Source of the DNA: a virus
Lineage: Duplodnaviria; Heunggongvirae; Uroviricota; Caudoviricetes
Reading direction: 5' to 3' (one strand)
DNA: 64,000 nt
IMG/VR virus record: IMGVR_UViG_3300025018_003790
Positions 2,329-61,760 of this stretch are shown piece by piece. Positions within the stretch are counted from its first letter, which is position 1. The number at the start of each line of letters is the position of its first letter. The position numbers and the translations under genes were made by a program. Below the pieces are notes generated by a model. It saw nothing but the letters and a program-made list of their open reading frames with translations, did no database searches and was not told the DNA's origin.

Positions 2329-3717
2329 TTATATGATCCATCTAGCTATTCCAATTTTGTTTTGATTACACCATATTTTAAGTATTTCCAGATCCTTCGG
2401 GGTTGGTGATTGGTTTAATCTTTTTCTAGCTTGCACAACTTTCATAGAATTGGGATTTACTTCAACTGTTAACAATCTTTTAATTCCTAAAAAATTATCA
2501 GTAACACGTAAAGACCAAATACTTGAATTCCCTGATGCACATGAATTCCCATAACTAAAGACACAATGATGCATCTCCTTTCCTTCTTCTATAAGATCTT
2601 TTAAGTTAAGCAACTCAACCATTTCATAAATTTTTAGATTTTTTTCTTTGCCTTCTTTGTACAAAAAAGGTTTAAAATCCATAGAATCCCATTTTTCTGC
2701 TTTATATTTTCTTTTCAATAAATTGTTTAATGCGTGCCATTCTTCCATTTGCTTAATGGTTGCATCAACTTCACGCTGCCTCATTGAAAAATTTGGTTGA
2801 ACAGGAATTAAAAAATTGGGGTGTTCTGGATCAGGAATTCTTCTAGCATATTTCTGGTTGAAAAAGAAATCAATCAGTGGCCCATAATAATTAGGATCAA
2901 GCATTGGGTTATCAATAAACCATTTAAAAACAGATTCCCAAAAGATATTTTCCTGTTCACTAAAATCTGTGGCAAGTCTTGTGCCTAGAACTCCATTCAC
3001 AATCCTTTCATCTCCACCCATAGCTAAAATTTGCCCCCATCTAATTGCTTCGGGCATTGAATAAGAATCTGGTGCCATCATCATATAATGAGCAGCTTTT
3101 TTTGTCAATTTTAGCGGAAGATTTTCTGCTGTTCTAATGTTGTTGCCAGAAGCAACATGAGTATACCAAGTCAAATCTTTGTCTAAAAGCAATTGAATAT
3201 TTGGTAGAGCAGAATTTAGCCAAACATTATCAAAAAACTTCGGGACAGGATAAATAGAAAAACAATGATGAACCAAAGATATTAATTGTCTATCTATGTT
3301 GTGACTTTTACATTCCCATTCAGTTATCGGTCTAATTATTTTTTCATTCATTATCGCTATTTTAATAAAAGTATAAGCAACTTTTATTAAATAGTCTTTA
3401 TCTGAAAATTTACATTTTCTTTTAGAACTCAACTCTAAAAGTTCTTTGATTGGTTGAGCCAATTGTTTATTATCTTTGTTATGACAAACAACTCTGTCTA
3501 TTTCTTTAATCAATTCATTTTTCAACAAAATTCTTTGTGAGTATTTAATTCTCCCTAACAACAATTGATAAAAATAATCTATTTCTTCTTGTTCAATATC
3601 TTTTTTCGAATTATTTGAAGATAAAATCAATTCAGCAGTTTTAGCGCTTTTTTCTCTAGCTTTTTTAAAATCCCTTATTCTTTCTGCTCGCATCTTTTTT
3701 CGAGAAGAGCTTGGCAT
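2329..3717 (-). CDS. hypothetical protein (462 aa)
   Basis: Long uninterrupted ORF in the same operon; no motif recognised. Confidence 0.5.
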   Translation of the reverse strand: MPSSSRKKMRAERIRDFKKAREKSAKTAELILSSNNSKKDIEQEEIDYFYQLLLGRIKYSQRILLKNELIKEIDRVVCHNKDNKQLAQPIKELLELSSKRKCKFSDKDYLIKVAYTFIKIAIMNEKIIRPITEWECKSHNIDRQLISLVHHCFSIYPVPKFFDNVWLNSALPNIQLLLDKDLTWYTHVASGNNIRTAENLPLKLTKKAAHYMMMAPDSYSMPEAIRWGQILAMGGDERIVNGVLGTRLATDFSEQENIFWESVFKWFIDNPMLDPNYYGPLIDFFFNQKYARRIPDPEHPNFLIPVQPNFSMRQREVDATIKQMEEWHALNNLLKRKYKAEKWDSMDFKPFLYKEGKEKNLKIYEMVELLNLKDLIEEGKEMHHCVFSYGNSCASGNSSIWSLRVTDNFLGIKRLLTVEVNPNSMKVVQARKRLNQSPTPKDLEILKIWCNQNKIGIARWII

Positions 3718-5953: not shown

Positions 5954-6163
5954 TTAATATTCTTTTTTATTTTTAGATAATTTCCAACACATGTGTGAAG
6001 TTGAAATAAAACAAACCATGAGAGAGAATAGAAAAAAACTATATAGATTTAATCTATTGTATCCTATAAGTGCTCCACAAAGAATGAAATAACCAATAAA
6101 AATTGTTGAACAAACAGCTATTTCCCCAAAATTAGTTTGTTTGTCATTGCTCTCTTCTGCCAT
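5954..6163 (-). CDS. small membrane protein (70 aa)
   Basis: Internal ATG at 6161-6163 preceded by AAGGAGAG SD; hydrophobic helix IFIGYFILCGALIGY. The longer ORF-track version runs into a GC-rich leader and is probably not translated. Confidence 0.45.
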   Translation of the reverse strand: MAEESNDKQTNFGEIAVCSTIFIGYFILCGALIGYNRLNLYSFFLFSLMVCFISTSHMCWKLSKNKKEY

Positions 6164-6164
6164 C

Positions 6165-6275
6165 ACGTCTCTCCTTGGCCGCCCCATCCCCGGGGGCCAA
6201 GCTTGCCGCTGCTGGGCCTCTCTGGCCCTCCTAGCGACCTGTGGCACCATTATAGCATCTCCGCAGAGGGCTTTG
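6165..6275 (-). promoter_or_regulatory. GC-rich leader with TATAAT -10 element (GCTATAATGGTGCCAC)
   Basis: About 70% GC patch in an AT-rich context; TATAAT at 6249-6254 (minus) followed by a palindrome-rich 5' leader (CCCCGGGGG, GGCCAAGCTTGCC) ending at the SD of 5954..6163. Confidence 0.4.
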
Positions 6276-7115
6276 GGCTTGAAATGATTCAGGTGCATGA
6301 AGATGACATAATTGCATGTGCGTTAACTCGGTTGATAAGTCTTTTCTTTTTTAACTGTTCTTTTGTTAGAAAACTTTCCGGTGAAATTTGCATCAGGTCG
6401 CAGCTTTTGAAGACGTTAAAATCTTCATACCATTCATTTGGATTTTTCTCGTCAATTAAATCGTCGCCCTCAAACTCTGCACAGCTACGTTTAGCACAAA
6501 AATCTTTTGACCGCTGAACCACATCATCAAAGTTATTTGTCACAAATAACTCTGGTGACAACTCGGAAACACCATCTCTTTTTACTTGCTTTACATGATA
6601 AATCACATAAGTTATTATTTCTTCTCTACAAACTTTTTCTTCAAACACTCGAACTTTTCTTTTTGATTTTGTTCTTTCTTTTCTTTTTCTTCAAGTTTTC
6701 TGCGTACTAGATATTCATCGAAAAGTTTTTCCATTTTATCTGAAACAAAATCTTCGATGTTGAGTTGATTAAAATCACCAGACTCAAAGACGACTAACTC
6801 GTCTATCCATTCACTTTGATACAAATTTTTTTTCTTCAACAAGTTTTTTTCTATTAAGTCCACGCTTATTTTTATCATAGACAAGACGCTTGCTTTCCAT
6901 GAAAATTTTATCTGCAAAATTTTTCAGTTTTTCTTCATCCATAATTTCATGTGACACTTAAAGTGTGTTTAGATCATCATCATCATATGGATATCTGTCT
7001 CTTCGAATGTAAACTAAATATTTCTTCATGTCTTCCCTTTCTAAATCTAATTCCCTTACATCCATTATACCACTGACGGCAGAGAGGCACACCTTGGAAG
7101 CCTAGTAACCTTGAT

Positions 7116-10463: not shown

Positions 10464-10811
10464 TGTTTACAATCTGAAGTAGGCTTTCTGATCGCCTTGT
10501 AATATGGATGATCCTTGCATTTTAATTCAATCATTTGTTTCCTCCTGCCTTACGGATACGATCTTGTTTTGTATTATACCCGAGCCCCTGGGGGTTTTGG
10601 TTTTGGATTTAATTAATTAGATTTCGTTTGAATAGTATATTTTGAATTTGTATTGTTAAGCAATTCCTTAATTTTATCAATCGAATCCATGTTGACAATC
10701 ACCACATCCCAAGAATATTCTTCACCATCCATAACAAATGATTTTCTCACTAAAAAATCACGACTGCTCACTTCGTTGCTGTGAAGATAATTCCTCACAT
10801 GTGTTAGGCTT

Positions 10812-15328: not shown

Positions 15329-15737
15329 GTGGGTTGGCTCCTTCTGCCTCTCTCAGTCGAAACGATAATCTGTAGCTTCAAAATAATCAACGATTTCGTA
15401 TATCCTTTGTTGTGCTCTTTTAATAATATCATCTGCTATTTTCAAAGCGCCTTTAATGCATTCGCCTTTGTTTTCATCCCTAAATCTCTCTTCTTCCGTT
15501 TTTATTCTTATCTCTGCTTCATAATGGAAATCTTGTTCGCTATTTGGCATAGAATAAGATTTTCTTTGGATAAAGATACTAACTGGCCCGATGATAATGA
15601 CTTCTCTGGTGTCATTGACTTTCAAAAGTGGACTCATTGACATTTTTGTTTCCTACCAGCAATTCTGCAACAAGATGTTGCAGAGACATTGTAACACAGT
15701 CTACATACGCTCATGGTGGTATAGCCAAGTGGAATTT

Positions 15738-18510: not shown

Positions 18511-18768
18511 TCAATTAATAATGATAGCATTATTAATTTCTAGTTTTTCTAGTTTTTCTAGTTTTTCTAGTTTTTCTAGTTTTTCTAGTTTTTCTAGTTT
18601 TTCTTGAAGCGCTGAAACAATATCTTCATGCAATATCTTCGAGCCTCTCCTTAAACACCAATCAATCCTTGCAGCATGGGATGGTTTTAATTCTTCTTCG
18701 GCTAAAACCTCTTCTGAAATATCTTTAACCAAATTATATAATAAATTTGGCAATGAACAGTTTCCCAT
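18511..18768 (-). CDS. small protein with (EKL)n repeat
   Basis: ORF track; contains an in-frame 9-bp tandem repeat encoding EKLEKLEKL... Confidence 0.4.
   Translation of the reverse strand: MGNCSLPNLLYNLVKDISEEVLAEEELKPSHAARIDWCLRRGSKILHEDIVSALQEKLEKLEKLEKLEKLEKLEKLEINNAIIIN
18538..18603. repeat. perfect tandem repeat, 9-bp unit TAGTTTTTC x7
   Basis: Directly visible at 18541-18603; multiple of 3, so copy-number change keeps the frame. Confidence 0.85.
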
Positions 18769-18818
18769 CTCTCGCTCCTCTCGCTCCTCTCGCTGGGGCT
18801 TTTCCGTCGCAGGTCTGG

Positions 18819-19683: not shown

Positions 19684-21087
19684 ACCGTTCCTTAAAATCT
19701 GCGGAAATCTAAGCATTTGACAATGCTCCAAATATTCGCAAACCTACTGGTTTAAAACCGGCACCGTAAGGTCCGGTAAAGAATCGATTCAAAATATTCC
19801 TCCCTGCATTTGTATCTGCGTTGCCTTTATGACCACAGCCAAGGCACAGGAATATCTCTCCATTCCGATTCTTCTTATCAGCATGACCACATTCAAGGCA
19901 AGTGATACTGGTATTATAACAGGGAACAGAACGGAAGGAAACACGGTTTTCTTCACATCCCATTTGAACCCGATTCAACCAATATCGCCACACCCACGAG
20001 CCGATAACTCGACGCATATTTTTGGAAAGGCGTCGTCTTTCCTTTGTCTTGTGATTCAAGTTTGACAACTTTTCAACAACCACAAGATCAATCTTTTCAT
20101 TAGAAACTATTTGTTTTGCAACCTCATCCATTCGTTGTTTCAATGCCCTTCTGGCTCGCTTTTGTCCTTTAGAGCCATGTTCACAACGAACTATTCTCTG
20201 CACACATTCTTTTATGTCTCTGCCCAACTGCTCACCGTTAGAAAAAGAAGCCAAGGCGTTGATGCCAGAGTCAATTCCGATAGCATTTTTGCCTTCCTTC
20301 TTCTCTCCTGTTTGAATCTCAAAGCAGAACTGGACATCTTTGTCTGTTATGATGTAGCTATTCAATCTCTGTCCCAAATTGTTCCATTTGTTAAAATGCT
20401 TGTGATATCTGATTGGCAAGTCAATGATAGTCTTTTCCCCAATAGAAGACAGATGTAGCCAACCATCGAATTCGTTTGTCTTAGATGGCTGAATATCAGC
20501 GATAGTGCAAGAGACATACATCCGATTGCCCTTATGCTTTGGCTTTTCTGCTGTCAATGCTTCTGCCTTCTGCTTCAACTGATTAGCTTTGTTGGAATAC
20601 TTCGCCTTTTCGGCTTTAGCTAACAATCGCTTCTTATCATTGGCTATTCGCTCTTGCGAGGCTTTAATCATATCTATTGCTTCACGAGCACAGACTTTTC
20701 TAAGTCTCGCTGATAGCCAAGACTCTGGTTTATTGACTATATCCTTTAGCAATTCTGCTTTGGTTGGGCAATCATCCCAGAAAGAATCAATGAACAGATT
20801 GCAAAGTCTACCATATTCAGTCAGCACAGTTTTAAGTTGCTCACGCTTGGTAGCGGTAGCGAATTTCAAAGAACACTGTGTTGACCGAATTATCTTCATT
20901 TTTCTGTCTTCGCCTCTGCTTCTTTAGCTTCCGCTTCTTTCTATTTTCACTACTTCTTTTGCCGTATATTTTGTTGGAAAATGACGCCATTAGAGAAGCC
21001 GGGTTTGCGAATGCTCACATGTTTCCCTTTCGTTTCCCGCAGTTATCCATAGATTTTCGCAGATTTAGTGCCAACTGTTATTAACCC
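19684..21087 (-). mobile_element. IS607-family element, internally deleted copy (tnpB only, with a tnpA 3' remnant)
   Basis: Right end ACCGTTCCTTAAAATCTGCGGAAATCTAAGCATTTGACAATGCTCCAAAT and left end ATCCATAGATTT(T/C)CGCAGATTTAGTGCCAACTGTTAT are shared with the copy at 47616..51623. Sequence 20900-20990 is homologous to the 3' end of tnpA in the other copy. Confidence 0.7.
19709..20899 (-). CDS. tnpB: TnpB (OrfB) RNA-guided endonuclease, IS607/IS605 family
   Basis: RuvC-I IGIDSGIN, RuvC-II VVVEKL, zinc finger CLECGH...CLGCGH, RuvC-III NADTNAGRNI; about 88% identical to the 47641..48831 copy, with the C-terminal half near-identical. Confidence 0.85.
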   Translation of the reverse strand: MKIIRSTQCSLKFATATKREQLKTVLTEYGRLCNLFIDSFWDDCPTKAELLKDIVNKPESWLSARLRKVCAREAIDMIKASQERIANDKKRLLAKAEKAKYSNKANQLKQKAEALTAEKPKHKGNRMYVSCTIADIQPSKTNEFDGWLHLSSIGEKTIIDLPIRYHKHFNKWNNLGQRLNSYIITDKDVQFCFEIQTGEKKEGKNAIGIDSGINALASFSNGEQLGRDIKECVQRIVRCEHGSKGQKRARRALKQRMDEVAKQIVSNEKIDLVVVEKLSNLNHKTKERRRLSKNMRRVIGSWVWRYWLNRVQMGCEENRVSFRSVPCYNTSITCLECGHADKKNRNGEIFLCLGCGHKGNADTNAGRNILNRFFTGPYGAGFKPVGLRIFGALSNA

Positions 21088-21311
21088 ATCAAGATAGCTA
21101 TTGTCCCTTCGTCGGACAGAACAAAATAATCATCTTCAATTGAGAAAATTATTGAGACACCAGAGCCATCTGGGTAAATCAAATCTGTTTCAACCAAAAA
21201 AGAGTTTTCACTATGATCTTGCAAAAAATATTCATTCCTTCCAATTAGATCGTAGACATCATCTAGTATTAAATGACCCATCTCTCTCACTGCCTCCGCT
21301 GCCATTGCCAC
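21081..21311 (-). CDS. hypothetical small protein (likely starts at internal ATG near 21281)
   Basis: ORF track; GGAGGCAGTGAGAGAG SD precedes the second Met; TATAAT lies only 10 nt upstream of the first ATG; the stop codon abuts the IS left end. Confidence 0.35.
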   Translation of the reverse strand: MAMAAEAVREMGHLILDDVYDLIGRNEYFLQDHSENSFLVETDLIYPDGSGVSIIFSIEDDYFVLSDEGTIAILMG

Positions 21312-21316
21312 CCTGT

Positions 21317-21328
21317 ATTATACCACAA
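21317..21328 (-). promoter_or_regulatory. extended -10 promoter TTGTGGTATAAT
   Basis: Sequence seen on the minus strand; same core found upstream of tRNA-Glu and after tRNA-Ser(CGA). Confidence 0.45.
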
Positions 21329-21350
21329 CGCTGCCTCTGCGGCGGTTGGT

Positions 21351-21384
21351 GGAAAAAACAAACGGCCGGTGGACTCCGGCCGTT
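21351..21384 (-). terminator. rho-independent terminator
   Basis: Minus-strand AACGGCCGG-agtcca-CCGGCCGTT (9-bp GC stem) followed by TGTTTTTTCC. Confidence 0.55.
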
Positions 21385-21583
21385 CGTGGTTCTTTATTAA
21401 CTTGGTCGTCCCAGCACACAATTACATTCTGACCATTCTTGGGGACGGGTCCTTTTACAGCTATAGCCGAAGTTGCGGCCTCTGATTTCGTCTTCAGGAC
21501 GCTTTTATTCCCATAAAAGTAAGGATGCATATTTTTGTGATTTACATATGCGTCTATAACCAATTTGGTTTTTTGCTGTTAAT

Positions 21584-27568: not shown

Positions 27569-27610
27569 GCTGACATACTCCCTCCGCTAAAGCAGGAAGG
27601 CTTTCTAGCC

Positions 27611-28720
27611 GTGTTCTTTGTAAATTATACCTTGTTGTGTCAACCAAAAATTTATGTTTTGCAGGGAATAAAATTTTTTGTTAGAATTAATACTTTGATC
27701 CTTTGGAGGTTTTTCAAAATGGAATTTAATAAAAAAGTAGATAGGGCTTTGTCTGATTTAACAAAATCTTCACAATGGTGTGATGATCATTTTAATGAAG
27801 GATGGGGAAATCTTGCAAATTGTTTTGATGATACTATTTTGCTTTTATCTGCATTTTCATCTAAAGATAAAAAATTAATTAAATTAAATCAACAAAGAAT
27901 TAAAATGGGAAAAATATCTGGTCTCCCTCAAATATCTCTTGATGCCATCTTGGAGAGTGGGGGTAGGAAAATTCTAGAGAATATTGTCCCCCTCGGCGAG
28001 AGGTTCTTGCAGCATCAAACTGGCGGTGGGGACCACATGAAAGACGAGAGGAAAGAAGTTCCAGGTTGGAGAGACAAAGCAGGAAGAGCTTTAGATTATG
28101 GGACTACATTTTCAAGGAACCCAGGTTTTTTGAATATGGTCGGCGCTGGTCTAGGGGAATATCTAAAAGGTGGTGATTTAAAGGGAGTTGCAGAAAAAGC
28201 TGGATTGGCAAATCTTCCATACGAAGTTAGAATCGGTCTTGAGACATTTGAGGGATTAATTCCATTGGTTGAGGAGGTTGCCCCTGTTCTTAATCAGTTC
28301 ACAAATTATAATGTCTCAGAAATTATTAACAAAATGAAATCTATAATCCCACAAGTAGCTGCTGCTATCGGTTGGGGTTTGTTACTCAGGAAAATCATGG
28401 GGCTTGGTGGGGGAGATCAAATAGACGAAAAGAATAAAGATCATAAAATAATAGATGATTCAGTCCCAGAAGCTCCAAAACCCCAAGAATCGGGAGAACC
28501 AACCAGGGTCATGCCATCAAATTCTTCAGACGGTTTTGCTAATGATGTTTCTGATTTTGGTTTAGGATCAGAAAAACAATTGGGATTGAGAAGAGAATCT
28601 TCAAAAAAATCATCAAATCCATTAGTTTATGTTGCAATAAAAAAGAAAAACTCAAATGGGACCATTAAAAAAGAACTTGGGATTTTGCCATACTCACTTG
28701 CTAAATTGATGAATGATTAA
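27611..28720 (+). CDS. hypothetical protein
   Basis: ORF track, 369 aa; its stop abuts the stop of the convergent gene 28721..29506. Confidence 0.45.
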   Translation: MFFVNYTLLCQPKIYVLQGIKFFVRINTLILWRFFKMEFNKKVDRALSDLTKSSQWCDDHFNEGWGNLANCFDDTILLLSAFSSKDKKLIKLNQQRIKMGKISGLPQISLDAILESGGRKILENIVPLGERFLQHQTGGGDHMKDERKEVPGWRDKAGRALDYGTTFSRNPGFLNMVGAGLGEYLKGGDLKGVAEKAGLANLPYEVRIGLETFEGLIPLVEEVAPVLNQFTNYNVSEIINKMKSIIPQVAAAIGWGLLLRKIMGLGGGDQIDEKNKDHKIIDDSVPEAPKPQESGEPTRVMPSNSSDGFANDVSDFGLGSEKQLGLRRESSKKSSNPLVYVAIKKKNSNGTIKKELGILPYSLAKLMND

Positions 28721-32051: not shown

Positions 32052-32696
32052 TTAGATTAACAATTCATCAAAAAGTTCTGTATCGAGATTAGTTAAGCAA
32101 TTGACTTCAAATTTTGAAAGTTGTTTGCCGTTGATCCACCAACTTTTATTGCCATCAGCTAATTCAATAGCAGGCCCATCAAGGCGGTGAAGCTGGCCAT
32201 TTTGCAACCAAGATTTTGAACCATTGGCAAATTCAATTGCTGGGCCATCAAGGCGATGAAGTTTGCCGTTGAGCCACCATTCTTTTGTTCCGTCAAACCT
32301 TTCAATAGCTGGCCCATCAAGGCGATGAGATTTGCCATTCAATCTCCATTCTTTTGATCCGTCGGCATTTTCAATTGCTGGCCCATCAAGGCGGTGAGGC
32401 TGGCCATTTTGCCACCATTCTTTTGATCCATCGGCAAATTCCTTTGCTGGCCCATCAAGACGATGAGGTTTGCCGTTGATGAACCATTCTTTTACCCCAT
32501 TGGGCCAATCAACAGCAGGCCCATTAAGGCGATGAAGTTTGCCGTTGATGTACCAATGTTCTACTCCCTCGGGTGTTTGATATGCTGGCCCATCTTCTCG
32601 GTGAAGTTGGCCATTTAAAGTCCAAGTTTTTACGCCATTATTCTCGATCCTTAATTTTGGATTTTTTTTCATAGTTAACCTCAATTCATCAATCAA
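32052..32696 (-). CDS. MORN-repeat (variant) protein
   Basis: About eight tandem units of the WxNGKxHRLDGPAxE..DGSKEW form. Confidence 0.7.
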   Translation of the reverse strand: MIDELRLTMKKNPKLRIENNGVKTWTLNGQLHREDGPAYQTPEGVEHWYINGKLHRLNGPAVDWPNGVKEWFINGKPHRLDGPAKEFADGSKEWWQNGQPHRLDGPAIENADGSKEWRLNGKSHRLDGPAIERFDGTKEWWLNGKLHRLDGPAIEFANGSKSWLQNGQLHRLDGPAIELADGNKSWWINGKQLSKFEVNCLTNLDTELFDELLI

Positions 32697-33952: not shown

Positions 33953-33990
33953 CTCTGCTTTCCTCCTCGCCCTCTTCCCCGTTTGTAGCA

Positions 33991-34025
33991 AAGCCCTGCG
34001 GCGCTGTGAGAGCGCCGCAGGGCTT
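33991..34025 (-). promoter_or_regulatory. 15-bp perfect GC-rich hairpin between the vWA and pncB genes
   Basis: AAGCCCTGCGGCGCT-gtgag-AGCGCCGCAGGGCTT; no U-tract, so not a canonical terminator. Confidence 0.5.
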
Positions 34026-34036
34026 ACGATCGGCTC

Positions 34037-39457: not shown

Positions 39458-39895
39458 TAGGGAGCCCCTTCTTTTGTTTTAGTTGTTATTTCTACATATT
39501 CTTTATCTTCAATCATTTCCTTAATCATAGCAATAATATCAGATTCTGAAACAAAATCACCAATTTCCCTATCAACGCCCTTTATTGCTGATTTTCTGCT
39601 GACATTATTTAAAGAGGTGCTATTTTTTTGAACACCAACCACCCAAGCACCACTATCTATATCATCAAGTAATTCACAAAAAACTTTTGCTTTAAAATCA
39701 TTGGTCTTCGATGAATTATTAGAATTAAAATTAACAAAAACAATATCAATTTTTTCTAGCAAAGTTTTTAAAGAATTTTTCCCATCAGATAGATCTGGAA
39801 GTTTTAAACTTATAATATAAAACATATTTATCAATTTTACAGCCCAAGCAGATGATCTTTCTTCACTAAAACCAACCAATAGAGCATTATTCTTG

Positions 39896-40465
39896 TCATC
39901 CATCTTTTTTATCTTCCGTTTCTTCGGTTGCTTCCGTTTCTTCGGTTGCTTCCGTTTCTTTGACTTCTTCCGTTTCTTCGGTTGCTTCGGCTTCTTCAGC
40001 GCTGGTAATAGCTTCTAGAATGTTTTGGATAATTATTTTTGATGCTGCAAATTTGTAAAGTTTTACTCCACCAGCTTCTTCTATTTTGACTCTTATTGGT
40101 TCACTAATTATTTGTGTTAAACCAAAAACAACAAGACTTGGGAAATTCTGGACTAATGATTTTATAACAGTCAGATTTTTTGAAGCAACGCTTTCCACAG
40201 GGACAATGATTGAACAGTAATCTTTATCTTGAATTAACTTCGCTAAACTTTTTCCACCATTTTCTAAATCTTTTTTGACAATTGAGTTCACCTCAAAAGC
40301 ATCTAATAGTTTTTCAACAAAACTATTTACGAAGTTATCGGGGGCGAGACCAACGATCAAGATGCTCTGCTTCTCGGATGACATATTCGTTCTACCTTTC
40401 GGTGGTTTTTGTGATTCGATCAAATTGTTCTTTGAGAGCAGGAAATTCTTGCATCCTTTGTTCAA
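39896..40465 (-). CDS. hypothetical protein with acidic TEETEA repeat tail
   Basis: ORF track; 18-bp tandem repeats TTCCGTTTCTTCGGTTGC (about 4 copies, 39914-39985) encode the repeat. Confidence 0.4.
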   Translation of the reverse strand: MNKGCKNFLLSKNNLIESQKPPKGRTNMSSEKQSILIVGLAPDNFVNSFVEKLLDAFEVNSIVKKDLENGGKSLAKLIQDKDYCSIIVPVESVASKNLTVIKSLVQNFPSLVVFGLTQIISEPIRVKIEEAGGVKLYKFAASKIIIQNILEAITSAEEAEATEETEEVKETEATEETEATEETEDKKDG

Positions 40466-41676: not shown

Positions 41677-43718
41677 CGAAGCTATCGCCTTTCCTTCCCC
41701 AAATTATCTATTTGATTTAATTTTTGCAATTTTTTCTATTTCTTTTAGTCTTTCTTGTGTATCAATATCTTCATCTAACAAAATCGCAGATAAAAGATCA
41801 ATAATTTTTATTTCATTATTCTTAAGTTCTTCAAAATCTAGATTCAATTTAGAGAATTCTTTGGAAAGTTCTGAAAACTTCTTTTCTTTATTTTGTTTAG
41901 ATAGTTCAAACAAATTATCAATTATATAAAACAACACCCCTCCGACAATAATAATAATGATTAGGTCGTTCATTTTTTATCTCCGAAGATTAAGCTTGAA
42001 GAACTTGAAAAAACTAAATCATCCTTAAAAAGAGGATTTTCGGTTTTTTTGAAAGGACAGGGGATCTGATCATAAAATTGATTGATATTTCTTCCGAATA
42101 TTGAATAGCCTTCTTTTTGTTTAATGACTTGAATTCTCTTGGTAGAAAGGCCACGAGTATTCCTTGAATAAGTTGGTGCATTAAGATTAATAATCAAGAT
42201 ATCTTTGTTCTTAGGGCGCCAAATATCATATACAGAAAGCCATCTTAAATCATTTTCTTGCAAATCTTTCACAAGAATTATTTTTGGCTCTTCTTTTTCT
42301 TTATAAACTATCTTTTCTTTTTGGGGTGGAATAACAAATGGTTTTACTGCAAATATAAACAAAGCCATTGATAGGATAAAATAGATCAACTTCGGTCTGT
42401 TTTTCATGGCTGTTCCCTTCCCAAAATGGGCGCATTGCCTACGATAACCGTTTCTTCTCCTGCTTGGACTTCAAATTCTTTTTGGGTTAAATCAAAACAG
42501 CCGCTTGCTAAACCAATTTTTATATCCTTTTGATGAAGTGGACAGGTTAAACAACCAAGTAATTTCAAATATTGAGTTGAGTTTGGGTTGATCACCATCC
42601 CACTTGCCTGCCTTTCAGGATGAGTGCCCGACCAGTCCATACTTAATGCACACTTCGCCCACAATGTTTGATTTTAAAAAGGAGATCAAATCAGAATATT
42701 CTAATTCCATCAATTCAATTTGCCTTTCCCTTTCAGAATCTGAAGGGATTTCAAAAAGCAATCCTTCTTGAAACATTTTCTCTTCATTCCACCAAAAACT
42801 TTCAACCTTAACCTTTGATGAATTAGTCATTAGAACAACACGGTTTGATTCGTTAAAAGTCCCACGATCACAAAGACGATCATAGAAATCTTCCGGGAAA
42901 TTTTTGGTATCATATCCTAATTTAATCAAAGCTGTCGAAACACCATCACCAACAATTTCGATGTATGGCCCCATGTAGTGTCTGATTGAAAATGACATCT
43001 CCAGCCCCTCTGGCAGTCCAGCCGCCACACCTTAGTATACCCCAACGGAGGCCATCCGAGTAAGCTTCGCCGTTGGGGCGCAAAAATATCAAAAAATTGA
43101 TTAGTTATTTAGATTTAATCAAATAGCTAATTGCTTGTTCTATTGTTTCAAAAGTAGCCTCTGTCTCATAAAAAGATGTAACAAGAGCTACACCTTTTTT
43201 ATAAATAAATAAAGTGCTATTTTCATCCAATATTGATACACAAGAAAGACTAAAAGAAAATGAAATTCTTAATACTTTTGCACTAATCATACTATGTTTT
43301 TTGTTGATGCCATGTTCATCACAATCATAATAATCAATTTCAAAGTTTTTTCTAATAAACGGAAGAATACAATTTAATTCTTCCATATATTCTTCTATTG
43401 GAGTATTTCCAAAAACCATTAAATAAAAATCACACTGTTCTTTTTCTTTATTAAAACAATTTTGATAAATATGCTTAAATTTAGCATCCATTGCAGCGGT
43501 ATAAGCTGCAATTTCCCAGATGTTTGAATTTGTTTTATATTTATATGAGAACCAATCTAGAATTTCCTCTCGTGTCAGACTCATAATTCTTTCTAATTCA
43601 TTTTCTTCTGTTGGATCCCTAATTTCAGTTAAAATATCACCTTTTTTTAATTTAAATGTCTCAACTTGTGCTTTTTCAGATGAAAAGAATGTTATATCCA
43701 TAAGTTTTTTCTACTACA

Positions 43719-44144: not shown

Positions 44145-44939
44145 TGCTCAGAACCGTCTTCATAAACAAGAACTTGCCTTGTTCTTAATTTTTTAATTTT
44201 ACCATTATAAAAAACATATTTGTAATATCATCCATTCTCCTTTTCTAATTGTTTTAACAATTCAATTAGTTCAATTGGGATTTCAATTCGGTATGAAATA
44301 TCCCAAGCCATAATTCTAGAAAACCATTTGTCCTTTTTGGCTAATAAAATCAAACTGCTTCTATTTAATCTTTCATAAAAATCAGGATTTAAAGAAGAAC
44401 TTTTGTTAATCCTCTCTCCCCATTCATAGTACCATTCTAAATCTTTTAATGGGCAATTCTTTTCAACACTTATCCCAGATCTAAGTCTTGTATCAATTTC
44501 TAAAACCTCTAAAGGATGTCTTTTAATTGCACGATTAATATCTATTTTTATCTTTCCATCTTCAAGTAGCATATTCATCAAGAATCTCCTCGTTGATTAA
44601 CCTATAATTCCTTTGAATGACTTGACAGCATTTCTTTAATCGTTTTTCACGCTGAAAGAGATTGGTGATAACAGCCTTATTCTCAAATTCTCTTGGCTCG
44701 TCTCCCCAAGAATTCCCAGCATATCCACCAGCAAAATATTTCCCTGTCTCAGTGTTCTTTATCACAAACACCGTTTTTGTCTCTGTTAGTTTGAATCCCA
44801 TTGCTCCGACCTCCATCCTCTCGGGTTGAGAGCATCTCATTATACCACAGAGACAAGGACGAAACACACCGGAAAGAAGGAACTTTTTAGAAGGATATTT
44901 AAGAAAGCTTGAGAATTAGGAATAATCAGGAGAATAAAA

Positions 44940-45680: not shown

Positions 45681-45746
45681 ATTGGAAAGCAACACACAGG
45701 CAAAATTGCTTTGCCTGTGTGTTGCTTTCCAATTCTTTTCAGTCTC

Positions 45747-46658: not shown

Positions 46659-46951
46659 TCACCTTCTTTCGGTTCGGTTGCCGCTTTGATTTCAGCAGGA
46701 GGTTGTTCGGCTTCAACGGTTGGTTTCCAAATTCCAGCGATTTTATTAACACCAATAAGCACAAGGATCAAATCTATACCGAGGACAAGGATCCCATTAA
46801 TTACATATAAATCATTTCTTTTGTTCAAGAGAAAAATTCCAATAATTGCAATAATTGAGACAGCAATTAACCCTAAAATTGAATAGAAAATTGTTTTCGA
46901 AATTTTCATCAGCATCTCGTCACTCATCATCGCTTTCTGTCCTTTCCCCAA
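46655..46951 (-). CDS. small integral membrane protein, SPFH partner
   Basis: Two TM helices; 4-nt overlap with the SPFH gene. Confidence 0.5.
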   Translation of the reverse strand: MGKGQKAMMSDEMLMKISKTIFYSILGLIAVSIIAIIGIFLLNKRNDLYVINGILVLGIDLILVLIGVNKIAGIWKPTVEAEQPPAEIKAATEPKEGE

Positions 46952-47005
46952 ACAAAAAAACGAGAGGCTGAACCAACCAGGGCCATTGGTCGATTCAGCC
47001 TCTCG
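46951..47005 (-). terminator. strong rho-independent terminator
   Basis: CGAGAGGCTGAA-(19 nt loop)-TTCAGCCTCTCG perfect 12-bp stem followed on the minus strand by TTTTTTTGTTTGG. Confidence 0.6.
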
Positions 47006-47289
47006 TATCTTGCTTTTTGGCGCTTGTTAGCACCTTTTCGGCCAACCCAAGCCGGTTCCATAATCCGCAAGAGATCATGGCTCATTGTGCCACCCAGGCC
47101 GAAATGGAGATCACCGATTGCCGGTTTCTTCGAAATGATCATCAACAGCTTTTCAGCCGGATAGGCCCATTTCGACTTCACCAAGAATCTCCCTCACAAA
47201 TCGGCTTACCTTTTTGTGGCACCTTCCACGATACCTCGAACCGGAGAGGCGGATGGTCCTCTCCGGCCCGAGGCACTCTGCGTCAACAC
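46951..47289 (-). ncRNA. candidate structured ncRNA (about 335 nt, GC-rich, promoter-to-terminator unit)
   Basis: Sigma70-type promoter TTGACA-N16-TATACT (47296-47323, minus) upstream, intrinsic terminator downstream; about 55% GC with many perfect stems (e.g. CCGGAGAGG/CCTCTCCGG). The only ORF (TTG start) runs through the terminator hairpin. Confidence 0.35.
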
Positions 47290-47295
47290 ACCTAG

Positions 47296-47323
47296 AGTAT
47301 ATCACCCCAGCGACCAGTGTCAA
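47296..47323 (-). promoter_or_regulatory. sigma70-like promoter TTGACA-N16-TATACT
   Basis: Exact -35 and near-consensus -10 read on the minus strand. Confidence 0.5.
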
Positions 47324-47640: not shown

Positions 47641-48831
47641 CTAAGCATTTGACAATGCTCCAAATATCCGCAAACTCACTGGTTTGAAACCGGCACCGTA
47701 AGGTCCGGTGAAAAATCGATTCAAAATATTCCTCCCTGCATTTGTATCTGCGTTGCCTTTATGACCACAACCAAGGCACAGGAATATCTCTCCATTCCGA
47801 TTCTTCTTATCAGCATGACCACATTCAGGGCAAGTGATACTGGTATTATAACACGGAACGGTTCGGAAGGAAACACGGTTTTCTTCACACCCCATTTGAA
47901 CCCGGTTCAACCAATATCGCCACACCCACGAGCCAATAACTCGACGCATATTTTTGGAAAGGCGTCGTCTTTCCTTTGTCTTGTGATTCAAATTGCTAAG
48001 CTTCTCCACAACCACAAGATCAATCTTTTCATTAGAAACTATTTGCTTCGCAACCTCATCCATTTGTTGCTTCAATGCCCTTCTGGCTCGCTTTTGTCCT
48101 TTAGAACCATGTTGGCAACGATTGATGCGATTAACGCAACCTTTTATATCTCTGCCCAACTGCTCGCCGTTGGAAAAAGAAGCTAAAGCATTGATACCAG
48201 AATCAATCCCTATGGCATTTTTGCCTTGCTTCTTTTCACCAGTTTCAATTTCAAAGCAAAATTGAACAGAATCTTTTGTTATGATATAGGAATTAAGTCT
48301 TTTTCCCAAGTTGTCCCATTTATTGAAATGCTTATGGAAACGAATTGGCAGGTTCATCACGATCTTATTTCCTATTGAAGCTAGATGAAGCCAAGCATCG
48401 AATTCATTAGTTTTAGACATTTGAAGATCAGCAATAGTGCAACTGACATTCATTCTATTGCCTTTGTGCTTTGGCTTCACGGCTATCAATGACTCTGCTT
48501 TCTGTCTCAATTGGTTCGCCTTTGTTGCGCTTTTAGCTTTTTCTGCTTTGGCAAGAAGCCTCTTCTTTTCGTTGTTGGTTTTTTCTTGGGAAGCCTTGAT
48601 CATGTCAATTGCTTCTCTGGCACAAACCTTTCTAAGTCTAGCTGAAAGCCAAGAATCAGGAGCGTTCACGATGTCTTTTAACAATTCTGCTTTGGTTGGG
48701 CATTGCTCCCAGAAGGAATCGATGAACAGGTTGCAAACTCTTCCGTATTCGGTCAACACAGCACCAAGCTCCAGCCTCTTTGCGGAGGTTGAAAACTTGA
48801 GGCTGCACTGTGCTGACCGAATAATTTTCAT
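47641..48831 (-). CDS. tnpB: TnpB (OrfB) RNA-guided endonuclease
   Basis: Same RuvC-I/II/III and zinc-finger motifs as 19709..20899. Confidence 0.85.
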   Translation of the reverse strand: MKIIRSAQCSLKFSTSAKRLELGAVLTEYGRVCNLFIDSFWEQCPTKAELLKDIVNAPDSWLSARLRKVCAREAIDMIKASQEKTNNEKKRLLAKAEKAKSATKANQLRQKAESLIAVKPKHKGNRMNVSCTIADLQMSKTNEFDAWLHLASIGNKIVMNLPIRFHKHFNKWDNLGKRLNSYIITKDSVQFCFEIETGEKKQGKNAIGIDSGINALASFSNGEQLGRDIKGCVNRINRCQHGSKGQKRARRALKQQMDEVAKQIVSNEKIDLVVVEKLSNLNHKTKERRRLSKNMRRVIGSWVWRYWLNRVQMGCEENRVSFRTVPCYNTSITCPECGHADKKNRNGEIFLCLGCGHKGNADTNAGRNILNRFFTGPYGAGFKPVSLRIFGALSNA

Positions 48832-48832
48832 A

Positions 48833-49120
48833 TCAGTGGACCATCCCTTGCGTATCTATGGTAATTTTCTTTTCTCTCACACTATCTAATATAATAGGAT
48901 ATGGCCTTGATTCAGTAAAAACCTCTTCTCCAATAAGACCGGCTGTATATTCTCCAGATTCCAATGCTAATTGTTTATCATCTTTAACCCACCAATCCAT
49001 TACTTGCTGTTCTTCACCTTCACCAGAAGAAGCAACCTCTGATAATTCGAATTCTATATTCAATTCATAGTCATGTCCATCAATGTTTAGTTTGTGTTCA
49101 GTTTCATATTTAGTTGTCAT
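48833..49120 (-). CDS. small acidic protein (95 aa) inside the IS element
   Basis: ORF track; pI clearly acidic (EFELSEVASSGEGEEQQVMDWW...); 1-nt gap to the tnpB start. Confidence 0.45.
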   Translation of the reverse strand: MTTKYETEHKLNIDGHDYELNIEFELSEVASSGEGEEQQVMDWWVKDDKQLALESGEYTAGLIGEEVFTESRPYPIILDSVREKKITIDTQGMVH

Positions 49121-51287: not shown

Positions 51288-51613
51288 CTATAAGTTCTTT
51301 CTCCTTGAAGGTGTAATACCATTGATCATAGATTCTTTGGAATTCTTCAATCTCAGGAAGTTCATCTTCGGCAAATGGCAACGGATGCGGAAAGACCGAT
51401 CCGTTATCAAGTTCGAATTCAGTTGTTGTAAGTCTAACAACAGTATGCTTTGTAATCATTTTGTCCATACCTTCCTATTCGCAGTTTTCTAACAGATTCC
51501 TGCATATTTTTAAGATTTCCTGAGATTTATTTTGAGGACAGATTTTGCAATGCTCGTTAGAGCATCTTATTTACCCATATATCCATAGATTTCCGCAGAT
51601 TTAGTGCCAACTG

Positions 51614-51877
51614 TTATCTACCCTTTTGGAGCGCAATCAAAGATCCTGCTATTTCTTCATAAACAACACCCAATCTTGTGTTTCCTAAAAGAAACTTTTG
51701 GGATAAAACCATAGCCATATGTTTATCGTCGATATTAAGACCTTTTGCTTTAAGTAATTCTTGGAATTTTACCCTAATTTGATACAAATCATGCCTATTT
51801 TCAGATAAAAACTTCAAAACATCTTTCACCCCCTGGCCCTCTTCCTCTGACATGGCTCTAGACCTTCCTGAAATCAA
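51614..51877 (-). CDS. hypothetical protein (stop codon supplied by the IS left-end sequence)
   Basis: ORF track; TAA at 51614-51616 lies inside the conserved IS terminal block. Confidence 0.4.
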   Translation of the reverse strand: MISGRSRAMSEEEGQGVKDVLKFLSENRHDLYQIRVKFQELLKAKGLNIDDKHMAMVLSQKFLLGNTRLGVVYEEIAGSLIALQKGR

Positions 51878-53455: not shown

Positions 53456-53860
53456 TCAGTCCTTTCTCTCAATCCCAAGAAGTTTTAGATCTTCTGGGGA
53501 CAAACCTGCAAGCAATTTCTTTTTTTTGAAATCATCTAAAGAATAACTTGTTTGCGCCAAAATTGATTGAGAAATTTCAGGTGGGGTTATATCTGCTTCC
53601 CAATCCATAATCTCTTTCCCTGCGAACCAAGCTTTTCTCCAAACACCACCATATTCACTCAGACCATCAAGAACAATAACCACACCAGGAAGTTTTTCTG
53701 AAACCTTCGCAATATTCTCATAATCCCATGATTTTGTGTTCCCAACTCCGGGGCAATCTGTCATTTTGAAAAACAATTCCTCAACTTCTTTTGTTGCTTC
53801 TGTCGGGACAACAGTTAAGGTGTGCTTAGTGTAATCGCCCACGGGTTTTCTCCTGCTCAT
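53456..53860 (-). CDS. hypothetical protein; start codon overlaps tRNA-Glu discriminator base
   Basis: The ATG is formed by the tRNA discriminator A plus TG. The longer ORF-track version (TTG at 54067) is the reverse complement of tRNA-Glu and a GC-rich leader, so it is rejected. Confidence 0.45.
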   Translation of the reverse strand: MSRRKPVGDYTKHTLTVVPTEATKEVEELFFKMTDCPGVGNTKSWDYENIAKVSEKLPGVVIVLDGLSEYGGVWRKAWFAGKEIMDWEADITPPEISQSILAQTSYSLDDFKKKKLLAGLSPEDLKLLGIERKD

Positions 53861-53931
53861 AGCCCTGGGGGGAATTGAACCCCTCGTTTTAGCCTTGAAA
53901 GGGCTGCGTTCTACCATTGAACTACAGGGCC
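53860..53931 (-). tRNA. tRNA-Glu(TTC)
   Basis: 72 nt: acceptor GGCCCTG/CAGGGCT (G1-U72), D-arm GTTC-AATGGTA-GAAC, anticodon loop CTTTCAA, T-arm GGGG-TTCAATT-CCCC, discriminator A; coordinates anchored to the ORF track (+/-1). Confidence 0.8.
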
Positions 53932-54029
53932 TAACCGGGGAGCACCTCACCCCACTGTGTAACAGGCGCATCGCCCAACTCATGCATGGGGGAGTTTCCC
54001 CTCGGCCCGATCTGGTGCCTGCCCGTGGC

Positions 54030-54150
54030 GGGGCTGAGACAACCCCAGCCCCGCCACGGAGGCTCAACAGGTATGGTAGACCAACCCGGCCGCCAAGTCA
54101 ACAACGAGCCCTCGGGCTCGTTGGGTGTCTTTATTATACCACGAGTTTTT
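54030..54150 (-). promoter_or_regulatory. GC-rich leader with tandem promoters and two perfect hairpins upstream of tRNA-Glu
   Basis: Minus strand: CGTGGTATAAT, hairpin AACGAGCCC-gag-GGCTCGTT, TTGACT-N17-TACCAT, then 12-bp perfect stem GTGGCGGGGCTG/CAGCCCCGCCAC, then about 95 nt to the tRNA. Confidence 0.45.
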
Positions 54151-55686: not shown

Positions 55687-55771
55687 CGGAGAGCAGAGGA
55701 CTCGAACCTCAACCACTTCCATGATCCAACCGATTAGCAATCGGTGCCCAAACCTCTTGGGTTTACTCTCC
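55687..55771 (-). tRNA. tRNA-Ser(GCT), type II
   Basis: 85 nt: acceptor GGAGAGT/GCTCTCC, anticodon arm ACCGA-TTGCTAA-TCGGT, 17-nt variable arm, T-loop TTCGAGT, discriminator G. Confidence 0.85.
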
Positions 55772-55785
55772 TCATTTTCCTAAAA

Positions 55786-57394: not shown

Positions 57395-57434
57395 CTCAAT
57401 TCCTTCCTTGCTGCCACACAGGCCGCACAAACAC

Positions 57435-57446
57435 AGTATACCACAA
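57435..57446 (-). promoter_or_regulatory. extended -10 promoter TTGTGGTATACT in GC-rich spacer 57400-57525
   Basis: Same TTGTGGTATA(A/C)T core as sites 21317 and about 54140. Confidence 0.4.
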
Positions 57447-57525
57447 GGCCGACAGAGCCCGCAATAGCAGACCTGTGGCGTTGCTGTGGCAAGGTGTGAG
57501 GGCTCGGAGTGTGGGGGGGCGAGAA

Positions 57526-57610
57526 CGGAAGGGGTGAGACTCGAACTCACAAGGGCTTTGCCACCCCACTTGTTTTCGAAACAAACTCCTGATCCAGCCG
57601 GATCCCTTCC
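57526..57610 (-). tRNA. tRNA-Ser(CGA), type II
   Basis: 85 nt: acceptor GGAAGGG/CCCTTCC perfect, anticodon arm TTTGT-TTCGAAA-ACAAG, long variable arm, T-arm GTGAG-TTCGAGT-CTCAC, discriminator G. Confidence 0.8.
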
Positions 57611-57802: not shown

Positions 57803-58402
57803 ATTTTCGACACACTTTCATTTTTTCTAAACTAAATCCTACAATTATCTGAAATCTAAAAAATCAAACAAAGATAAAATTTCATCTTTTCTATAAAACT
57901 TTTCTGCCGAACTAACAATATCTTGAATTATTTTATCCCCAAACCTTGGATAACTAGGTCTAATTTCTTCCGCATCCCAAAATAAATCTGTGCTTAAAGA
58001 AATCATTAAATAAACAACTTGTTCGTCTCTCTCATCAAAGCAAATGTTCAAATGAATCTCACTGTTTAGTTTTGAAATCAAAACATTATTTTTTCTATTC
58101 CAAATAAGTTCTGACATTTTTTTATTTTCAAAATTTTTAAGATTGATCAATTTTCATGCCCAACTCAAACCTGGGCCATCATGCAAAGAGTTATACAAAT
58201 TGTCAATTAACAGTTCCCACTCCGCCCCACTATAACCGCAATGTGTATGCAAATTTCCAATCCTTATCGTCAAACTATTACCGCCAAGATCTTCTTCAAT
58301 TGAAACAATCGCACCATTTTCGTTAATTATCTCAACAATCTTTTTGAGGCACTCTTCGCATTTCTCTGCGGTTGTCATTGCTTCCTCACTTTTAAATCAA
58401 AA

Positions 58403-58486
58403 CGGTAGACCTGGGACTCGAACCCAGAAGGGCTATTAACCCCACCGCTTTTCAAGAGCGGCCCCTGATCCAGCCGGTTGCCTACC
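58403..58486 (-). tRNA. tRNA-Ser(TGA), type II
   Basis: 84 nt: acceptor GGTAGGC/GTCTACC, anticodon arm CCGCT-CTTGAAA-AGCGG, long variable arm, T-arm CTGGG-TTCGAGT-CCCAG, discriminator G. Confidence 0.85.
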
Positions 58487-58607
58487 AAGAACAGACCAAT
58501 CAATCTTTAATTTTTCTCTTTGTCGTCCCTCTCATTTAGCAATCTAACAAGAGCCTGTGCTGCTTTTTTCCCGCCAAAGGTTTTGCCCTCCATGTTTTAC
58601 TCCTCTT

Positions 58608-61615: not shown

Positions 61616-61760
61616 AATCCCTTGATCGCTTTCTTCCGGCGGCCCGGCGCTTCCTGGCCGCCTCCTGCTTCGTGCCACCATGATACCCCGAAGCACCGCT
61701 CTTAGCAATACGCCAGAGGCTTTCTTCGACGGCCCGCCTTTGGGCAACAGCGTCGGGCAT
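61616..61760 (-). promoter_or_regulatory. GC-rich leader with TATCATGGTGGCAC element
   Basis: Shares TAT(A/C)ATGGTG(C/G)CAC and downstream GGCCAG(A/G)A composition with the 6165-6275 leader. Confidence 0.4.

Follow-up and report, generated by a model that had tools for sequence, protein, structure and literature searches.

Putative extended −10 promoters and heterogeneous leaders in the GC-rich patches of an AT-rich phage genome

Strong phage promoters typically have AT-rich UP elements, and the TRTGn or '−16 region' variant of the extended −10 element is common in Gram-positive bacteria. PeSLs, found in T4-like phages, occur in several copies that resemble one another and act as points of recombination. 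Among bacterial promoters carrying an extended −10 element, the TGn/−10 class has been defined and shown to be independent of a −35 element (PMC2988021).

The sites described here resemble extended −10 sigma-70 promoters in that TGn is present in seven of ten, no −35 is conserved and they occupy intergenic gaps of the coding strand, but they differ in having a GC-rich upstream flank with no AT-rich UP element and in three sites with GGn, and their activity is predicted from sequence. The likeness extends to the early promoters of lytic phages (T4 Pe, T5, T7 A1 and SPO1 early), which are also near-consensus, of host type and placed before small ORFan genes or tRNAs. T4 early promoters carry the TGn element, as here (PMC2988021), yet they are 'uber' promoters composed of UP, −35, TGn and −10, of which UP and −35 are missing here except at site D. 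As in the PeSLs of T4-like phages (PMC4122927, PMC2839356), a promoter stands behind a stem-loop or terminator in the gaps at sites B, C and H, but the islands have only the −10 in common and show none of the likeness between copies that defines PeSLs. At sites A, D and E a structured RNA comes right after the promoter, as in HK022 put, lambda nut, riboswitch and attenuator leaders, and at site D the RNA closes, attenuator-like, with a terminator that immediately precedes the next gene. Unlike such leaders, however, the sites have no sequence or structure in common and no Rfam match.

The window, i.e., the whole 64-kb stretch of DNA that was analysed, has a GC content of 35.1% and is taken here as a portion of an uncultivated, probably large phage. 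Nearly all of its genes are coded on the minus strand, and our own gene model, used as the gene map, leaves ~9.1–10.5% of the window non-coding. Genes that can be recognised in it include two diverged tnpB copies, a DNA methylase, an NAD synthase, an NAPRTase, a cytidylyltransferase-like gene, HNH endonucleases, a resolvase, a PcfJ-like gene and an SPFH gene; the same 114-kb contig carries an anti-Pycsar Apyc1 gene a short way outside the window. For most window proteins there is no Pfam or PHROG family. The 25 Pfam families listed (of 31 matched; 101 window proteins) contain neither a sigma factor family nor an RNA polymerase family. Five tRNAs are found by ARAGORN at default settings, to which a relaxed threshold adds two class-II tRNA-like genes (57527–57610, Ser-cga; 55687–55772, Leu-taa). 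A Borg-like archaeal element was set aside, the promoters, Shine-Dalgarno sequences (SDs) and terminators being of bacterial type.

Extended −10 sites on the coding strand

The original prediction listed five near-identical extended −10 cores on the minus strand, and all five quoted strings were recovered there: GCTATAATGGTGCCAC (6256–6241, site A), TTGTGGTATAAT (21328–21317, site B), CGTGGTATAAT (54143–54133, site E), TTGTGGTATACT (57446–57435, site F) and GGGTATCATGGTGGCAC (61688–61672, site G). The last is doubtful and does not deserve the description, as it reads TATCAT without TG at 61685.

Across the window, TGNTATAAT has nine matches against 3.3 expected, and GGTATA(A/C)T (GGTATAMT) also has nine, against 1.94 expected, a count to which none of 100 shuffles gets. 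Every GGTATAMT match is on the minus strand and eight of the nine fall in non-coding gaps, an enrichment with a binomial P of ~1e-7 to 4e-8 (4e-8 with a 9.1% gap fraction). Similarly, TG.TATA[AC]T has ten minus-strand matches, seven of them non-coding where 10.5% of the window is non-coding, and two plus-strand matches, neither of them non-coding. A motif as common in coding sequence as in the gaps would have spoken against promoters; the check found the extended −10 concentrated in coding-strand gaps and rare in coding sequence, and the promoter reading survives because the two frequencies are not similar.

Reading through all of the gaps gave ten good sites (A, A2, H, B, I, C, C2, D, E and F), whose alignment has the consensus tGTGGTATA(A/C)T, i.e., a TRTGn/TGn extended −10. 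The hexamer is TATAAT or TATACT in all ten, with positions 1–4 and 6 (T, A, T, A, T) invariant, and immediately upstream there is G at −2 in 10/10, G at −1 in 8/10, T at −3 in 7/10 and G at −4 in 7/10. TG stands one base 5′ of the hexamer at A, A2, B, C2, D, E and F, all seven of which have R at −4, while C, H and I carry GGn. A −35 box is found at site D only and none is conserved across the other nine; k-mer enumeration against shuffles returned no −35, MotA-box-like or leader motif, and in the 55 nt upstream and 60 nt downstream of the −10 no shared k-mer beats shuffles, the best downstream words being the SD-like GGAGG and GGAGGG. The 15 nt 5′ of the −10 average 63% GC over the ten sites. 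Each site lies 30–200 nt 5′ of an SD and ATG, a tRNA or a terminator-closed, ORF-poor RNA.

All of the sites are on the minus strand. Site A2 (TGgTATAAT, 7064–7072, first hexamer T 7069) matches the motif and has a GC-rich 5′ side, and its 35-nt leader, which is AT-rich, runs to a small ORF (ATG 7029). At site H (GGTATAAT, 10573–10580, T 10578) a CCCC-A-GGGG mini-hairpin precedes the motif, and a 38-nt leader with AGGAGG runs to a small Cys-rich ORF (ATG 10534). Site B (TTGTGGTATAAT, 21317–21328, T 21322), also a motif match, has a 35-nt purine-rich leader to the ATG at 21281 of a 66-aa ORF, which is followed by tnpB copy 1. An intrinsic terminator (21353–21383, minus strand), with an 8-bp GC stem and a T-run, lies 25 nt 5′ of site B and supplies much of the GC of the patch at 21307–21386; the hairpin scan gives it −16.1 kcal/mol and the fold upstream of site B reaches −32.4 kcal/mol. 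Site I (GGTATAAT, 27624–27631, T 27629) sits in an AT-rich context and adjoins a 54-nt leader (27623–27570) with a hairpin that pairs with the SD GGAGGG. This is the sole repeated leader (repeat D9), with 96% identity between 27570–27623 and 61831–61884. Site C (GGTATACT, 43034–43041, T 43039) has a 35-nt leader to the ATG at 42998, and a 9-bp hairpin (CCCCAACGG...CCGTTGGGG) abuts its −10. Site C2 (TGgTATAAT, 44839–44847, T 44844) lies in a divergent intergenic region with a 37-nt leader to the ATG at 44801, and site F (TTGTGGTATACT, 57435–57446, T 57440) has a 40-nt leader to the ATG at 57394. Site E (TGgTATAAT, 54133–54141, T 54138) would be the promoter of a tRNA transcription unit. Sites B, C, F and, weakly, H have a stem-loop directly 5′ of the promoter, which A, A2, I, C2 and E lack.

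Site D (47296–47323, T 47301) has the make-up of a full sigma-70 promoter, TTGACA, 16 nt and TGaTATACT. In the contig flanks there are TTGACA-17-TATGCT and TTGACA-17-CATAAT promoters, both within GC-rich patches. These canonical TTGACA-16/17-TATAxT promoters, at site D and twice in the flank, suggest that the host polymerase would read the classical consensus. A sigma-54 site was set aside, its TGGCAC having no TTGC partner.

Site A, the leaders and the content of the GC-rich patches

Site A (TGcTATAAT, 6249–6257, minus strand, first hexamer T 6254) is a TGNTATAAT match with no usable −35, and it lies in a gap of 125 nt with 63% GC (6164–6288). Here sigma region 3 would read the TG and region 2 the TATAAT, no −35 being needed, and transcription is predicted to begin near 6242. 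The transcript would then carry a G-rich 5′UTR of 79 nt and ~70% GC (6164–6242, minus strand), with two hairpins and ending AAGGAG-N7-ATG, for a 69-aa membrane protein. The gene model places this hydrophobic ORFan at 5954–6163 on the minus strand, with an SD and an ATG at 6163–6161, and the protein has a weak Pfam match to DUF4181 (E = 0.005). The leader has a minimum free energy (MFE) of −40.7 kcal/mol (z = −2.4), a stability matched by one of 200 shuffles, and the 120-nt window at 6240–6121 scores z = −4.0, rank ~22 of 1597 windows. The second hairpin (CUUGGCC...GGCCAAG) covers the first three bases (AAG) of the SD AAGGAG at 6176–6171, and it might thereby affect translation or stability.

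Gene callers read this island differently, as an N-terminal extension that lengthens the protein to 114 aa or 98 aa, so that three different starts have been called for one gene, one of them, that of the 98-aa call, within the TATAAT of the −10 box. Searched against 5.8 billion proteins, the 114-aa ORF returned only itself. We regard the island as non-coding with moderate confidence, because a 45-codon open frame (6298–6164) is not significant at such GC and has no homologues, and because tRNA-Glu too is covered by such an artefactual frame. The good SD and ATG of the 69-aa gene stand at the point where the composition returns to AT-rich. The practical lesson is that GC-rich regulatory spacers in AT-rich genomes mislead gene callers into extending ORFs across them.

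Site G (GGGTATCAT then GGTGGCAC, 61680–61688, minus strand, first hexamer T 61685) lies within a possible 64-aa ORF (61802–61608) that ends on a stop overlapping the start codon (ATG, 61615) of the cytidylyltransferase-like gene, and the patch at 61616–61760 may be a small ORF; the homologue search with the 64-aa ORF gave only itself among 5.8 billion proteins. TATCAT variants are plausible, because a clean TGTGGTATCAT stands beside a 15-bp GC hairpin elsewhere on the same contig (locus L018). The GGTG(C/G)CAC and GGCCAG(A/G)A blocks said to be shared by 6165–6275 and 61616–61760 are indeed present in both, but the two leaders do not align: alignment revealed no homology, and they have ten 8-mers in common against 7.8 ± 5.1 in shuffles. 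What they do share is TAT(A/C)ATGGTG(C/G)CAC, with 12/14 positions identical at the same offset, in which GGTGSCAC abuts the −10. The GGTGSCAC word, whose GTG-S-CAC core is an interrupted palindrome, occurs four times against 0.64 expected and only within islands (A, G and twice in D), a figure to be read with the local background being GC-biased and two copies being promoter-proximal. Its position at A and G hints at a possible extra signal beyond the promoter parts.

The D RNA (46954–47289, minus strand) would extend ~336 nt at ~52% GC from the site D start to a terminator, i.e., a long hairpin of ~18 bp followed by U7 (47005–46954). Its MFE is −164 kcal/mol against −117 ± 5 kcal/mol in shuffles (z = −8.9), and three-frame translation meets stops in every frame. 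An 84-aa TTG ORF left in the region (46927–47181) has a weak gene-model score and no Pfam match. Searches with the RNA gave no Rfam match at E ≤ 1, no tmRNA or tRNA and no phage BLAST match; a tmRNA or permuted tmRNA was rejected on the negative ARAGORN result, and a T-box or riboswitch was set aside given the Rfam outcome. It is a candidate for a stand-alone ncRNA or for a long leader, of attenuator type, to the genes for the membrane protein and SPFH. The E spacer RNA (53932–54126, minus strand; ~195 nt, 63% GC), between site E and tRNA-Glu (53931–53860), holds perfect hairpins of 9 bp and 16 bp and has no Rfam family. Its MFE is −108 kcal/mol (z = −4.2, none of 200 shuffles as stable), and it reaches z = −7.1 in the structure scan, which covered the minus strand in 1597 windows of 120 nt with 25 dinucleotide shuffles each and ranked D, E, terminators and tnpB 3′ ends at the top.

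A structured 5′ leader RNA family had been proposed for the promoters first listed, and this part of the original prediction is not supported. The distance from hexamer to ATG, tRNA or terminator is ~32 nt at C2, ~200 nt at E and ~340 nt at D, there is no common motif, and most leaders fold like their shuffles. Against dinucleotide shuffles, 'palindrome-rich' suits leaders A (z = −2.4) and E (z = −4.2), and D scores z = −8.9, but B (+0.5), F (−0.4) and G (−0.8) are near zero, with C at +0.25 and C2 at −0.8; about 3/10 leaders fold better than shuffles. Rfam at the gathering threshold yields tRNAs only, and at E ≤ 1 the islands give only tRNA-like matches. The RNAs behind the promoters are unrelated to one another and are not supported as a new leader-RNA family, while the promoters themselves are upheld by the motif enrichment.

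The high-GC patches are real, with 12 stretches in which 80-nt windows reach 60% GC or more, among them 6133–6286, 21307–21386, 53897–54133, 57410–57580 and 61609–61775. They are a mixture of ordinary regulatory parts, tRNAs, coding sequence and two structured RNAs. Some consist of a promoter with a short purine-rich 5′UTR containing repeated GGAG/GAGG (B, C, C2 and F), others of such a UTR with no promoter (18769–18818, with GAGAGGAGCGAGAGGAGCGAGAG-ATG, and 33953–34036, with a 15-bp hairpin and then GGGGAAGAGGGCGAGGAGGAAAGCAGAG-ATG), and at B, C and H there are GC hairpins or terminators just 5′ of the promoter. Transfer RNA genes account for 58402–58489, for the 3′ part of 53897–54133 and for the 5′ part of 57410–57580, and GC-richer coding sequence for the NAD-salvage cluster at 32–36 kb. 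In 57410–57580 the upstream third is a degenerate class-II tRNA-like gene, tRNA-Ser(cga), at 57527–57610 on the minus strand (ARAGORN −ps80, relaxed threshold), which scores 37.8 bits with the Rfam tRNA-Sec model, level with the accepted tRNA-Ser at 58404. Pfam searches of the ORFs beside the islands gave nothing useful.

Competing explanations for the islands

We put a probability of about 0.65 on the reading that the recurring element is a set of extended −10 promoters of host sigma-70/sigma-A type, heading transcription units of the coding strand, and that the GC patches are no single RNA family. The host holoenzyme would use these promoters to transcribe ORFan genes, tRNAs and one ncRNA-like unit, and the GC-richness would be that of ordinary GC- or purine-rich regulatory parts standing out against coding sequence of 35% GC. 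The 63% GC found 5′ of the −10 is not fully explained by such ordinary parts, and in a genome that is drifting towards AT, ~60–70% GC kept up over ~100 nt implies that constraint is dense or acquisition recent, both of which are putative. That the GC-rich stretches are instead protein-coding, as N-terminal extensions (the 114 or 98 aa at site A, or a 199-aa cytidylyltransferase-like protein) or as small basic ORFs (64 aa), is unlikely. Frames are open across the islands and are used by gene callers, and the 64-aa ORF has its own GAGGA-N6-ATG, a stop overlapping the next ATG and a sequence that looks like a helix with a basic tail. However, a composition estimate puts the chance of open frames of 45–65 codons at ~0.1–0.25 per frame at 60–70% GC, and a frame likewise 'opens' across tRNA-Glu (ORF 53456–54067). 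At site A, moreover, two callers disagree on the start, with one inside the TATAAT, while a good SD and ATG are available where the composition drops, and neither ORF has homologues. Structured leader RNAs acting on their transcripts (HK022 put/lambda nut-like antitermination, a processing site or a riboregulator) would account for the folds of A, E and D, all directly downstream of promoters, but not for B, C, C2, F and G, with z from +0.5 to −0.8, nor for lengths of 32 to ~340 nt, leaders A and G that cannot be aligned, the lack of an Rfam match and the lack of any motif beyond the SD-like GGAGG in the 60 nt after the −10; we hold this reading very unlikely.

The islands could also be mobile or imported cassettes, either PeSL-like terminator/promoter modules or GC-rich fragments from a GC-richer host or donor. 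PeSLs are small composite terminator/promoter sequences (PMC4122927), and a hairpin followed by a promoter is found at B, C, H and L018 (~15380–15420); the tRNAs for A/U-ending codons are consistent with a GC-richer host, and relatives of the window's 734-aa protein have 44–51% GC. Yet self-BLAST and the repeat search found no similarity between islands beyond the −10, the 54-nt D9 (27570–27623, 61831–61884) is the sole repeated leader, flanking direct repeats were not seen and genome scans did not find a source sequence, and import in either form appears quite unlikely. Selection on the GC-rich flanks at the DNA level, for regulator binding sites (e.g., GTG-S-CAC over the A and G starts) or for insulation from AT-binding silencers, we judge very unlikely. 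It draws on the enrichment of GGTGSCAC, all within islands, on the identical offset of the longer TAT(A/C)ATGGTG(C/G)CAC word at A and G, and on the three tandem 23-bp repeats 5′ of one of the flank TTGACA promoters, by which operator-like arrays do exist here. Against this, just two copies are promoter-proximal, local GC inflates the enrichment, no regulator was identified and a generic sigma-70/terminator scan does not discriminate in this genome (85 sites against 82.5 expected). It is also improbable that host-type promoters, 5′UTRs and small RNAs are deliberately kept by an AT-rich and probably huge phage in 'regulatory islands' of high GC. A much GC-richer host could be the cause, or an escape from AT-targeting silencers or nucleases. 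New RNAs could then be encoded in some of the islands, the candidates being above all the ~336-nt D RNA, then the ~195-nt E spacer and a GTG-S-CAC operator at the A and G starts.

Relatives, host and significance

Against 50,697 sequenced phages, no match came from megablast, blastn or tblastn, whether for DNA or for protein. Contigs carrying this phage, found by exact-protein look-up, are all 99.96–100% identical to the window, and scans of viral contigs with the DUF5662, 291-aa and 734-aa proteins returned only unrelated or 42%-identical loci. A metagenome scan added five loci with 45–63% amino acid identity and 44–51% GC. These nearest relatives share solely the 734-aa protein (42–63% identity), with neither synteny with the window nor the GGTATAMT motif, and given their GC content the window genome is an AT-rich outlier of its group. 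As for the host, a genome scan with TnpB found no relative, and one with NAPRTase gave a single 34-residue match to a Dehalococcoidia MAG, both results being uninformative. The phage tRNAs decode mainly A/U-ending codons, and this, like the AT-rich outlier status, fits a putative host of higher GC than the phage. Such a host may have to do with the high GC of the regulatory spacers, via constraint or acquisition.

The promoter finding does not itself open a new question; the one element that might is the ~336-nt D RNA. If the promoters are real, they map the transcription units of a phage-like genome that is uncultivated and deeply novel, and they would indicate a host with classical TTGACA/TGnTATAAT recognition and strong use of GGAGG Shine-Dalgarno sequences.

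Predicted structured transcripts and leaders

A predicted RNA unit lies on the minus strand at 46954-47323. The unit is headed by a canonical promoter (TTGACA-16-TGaTATACT) and continues into an RNA of ~336 nt and ~52% GC, which begins with a 5' hairpin of 19 bp and finishes in a long terminator hairpin (~18 bp) followed by U7. The predicted fold is far more stable than that of dinucleotide shuffles (MFE -164 vs -117 kcal/mol, z = -8.9). No convincing ORF was found within the RNA, and comparisons with Rfam, tmRNA and phage sequences each returned no match. A copy of tnpB (copy 2) sits ~300 nt upstream, and genes for a small membrane protein and an SPFH/Band-7 lipoprotein lie directly downstream. 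The transcript is a candidate for a new ncRNA, or else for a long attenuator leader.

Also on the minus strand, the spacer separating a TGgTATAAT promoter from tRNA-Glu (53932-54126, ~195 nt, 63% GC) contains two perfect hairpins of 9 bp and 16 bp (z = -4.2) and matches no Rfam family. The arms CCGTGGCGGG...CCCGCCACGG of the spacer's hairpins are found again in a second hairpin of the same contig (~15380-15415 of piece L018), which adjoins a TGTGGTATCAT promoter.

Among the leaders, only one of 54 nt is truly repeated, with two minus-strand copies (27570-27623 and 61831-61884) at 96% identity. It forms the hairpin CC(U/C)UCC-UGCUUUAGC-GGAGGG, in which the Shine-Dalgarno sequence 4 nt ahead of the ATG is paired, and the sole stem difference between the copies is U.G vs C-G. 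The first copy is preceded by a GGTATAAT promoter and followed by a 168-aa gene; the second, with only a 12-codon remnant behind it, sits immediately upstream of island G, a GC-rich patch with a doubtful promoter site.

The tnpB genes and their surroundings

Two tnpB (Cas12f-like TNB) genes are present, both on the minus strand (copy 1, 19709-20899; copy 2, 47641-48831). They share 84% identity overall and 95% across the final ~300 nt, and 25 nt beyond the stop codon their homology stops. In each gene TGTTATAAT occupies a matching internal position (19913-19921 and 47845-47853), ~220 nt ahead of the end of homology, and the 3' region of each is structured (z = -4.6 and -6.6 for the two genes). 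Such a pattern of identity, TGTTATAAT and structure fits an omega-RNA scaffold of ~220 nt that would be promoted internally. Within its first ~100 nt, copy 2 also has a long and very stable hairpin on the minus strand (48721-48840, z = -9.8) with arms ATTCGGTCAGCACAGTGCAGCC...GGTGCTGTGTTGACCGAAT; symmetry is lower at the matching position of copy 1.

A repeat of 38-44 nt (21044-21087 and 51580-51623, 93-97% identity) is located at the 3' ends of two small ORFs, the former immediately upstream of tnpB copy 1 and the latter ~2.7 kb upstream of copy 2, with a ResIII helicase among the genes between. Part of this repeat, GATTTTCGCAGATTT, is similar in inverted orientation to the tnpB 3' end GATTTCCGCAGATTT, and the repeat may be a transposon-end remnant.

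Other repeats

Some genes contain tandem repeats that keep the reading frame and are perfect or nearly so, at 18528-18613 (~9 copies of a 9-nt unit, TTTCTAGTT on the plus strand), 39894-39997 (a further array of 9-nt units) and 32124-32606 (a 206-aa ORF with five to seven units of 69 nt). Between convergent genes, a perfect 24-bp inverted repeat (45681-45733) is the best-scoring structure of the window (z = -11) and looks like a bidirectional terminator. In the contig flank, a tandem set of three ~23-bp repeats, CCTTGCAAGCCTCCGGGGGGAGC (2999-3238 of piece L014, ~5.5 kb past window position 64000), stands directly upstream of a TTGACA-17-TATGCT promoter inside another GC-rich island, and resembles an operator or iteron array.

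tRNA-like genes and gene starts

Two class-II tRNA-like genes on the minus strand, Ser(cga) at 57527-57610, whose acceptor stem has a mismatch, and Leu(taa) at 55687-55772, were absent from the default ARAGORN run and reported at a relaxed threshold. The Rfam tRNA-Sec model gave them 37.8 and 39.5 bits, respectively, and scored an accepted tRNA-Ser at a like level.

Public gene calls run ORFs into the GC-rich spacers at 6164-6298, 61616-61681 and 7029-7065. One gene has three lengths (114 aa and 98 aa in public calls, 69 aa here), the product of a cytidylyltransferase-like gene is 199 aa long in the public call vs 177 aa in our analysis, and the start of a publicly called 35-aa ORF falls within TATAAT. 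Such extension into GC-rich spacers is probably a systematic start-site artefact of this genome.
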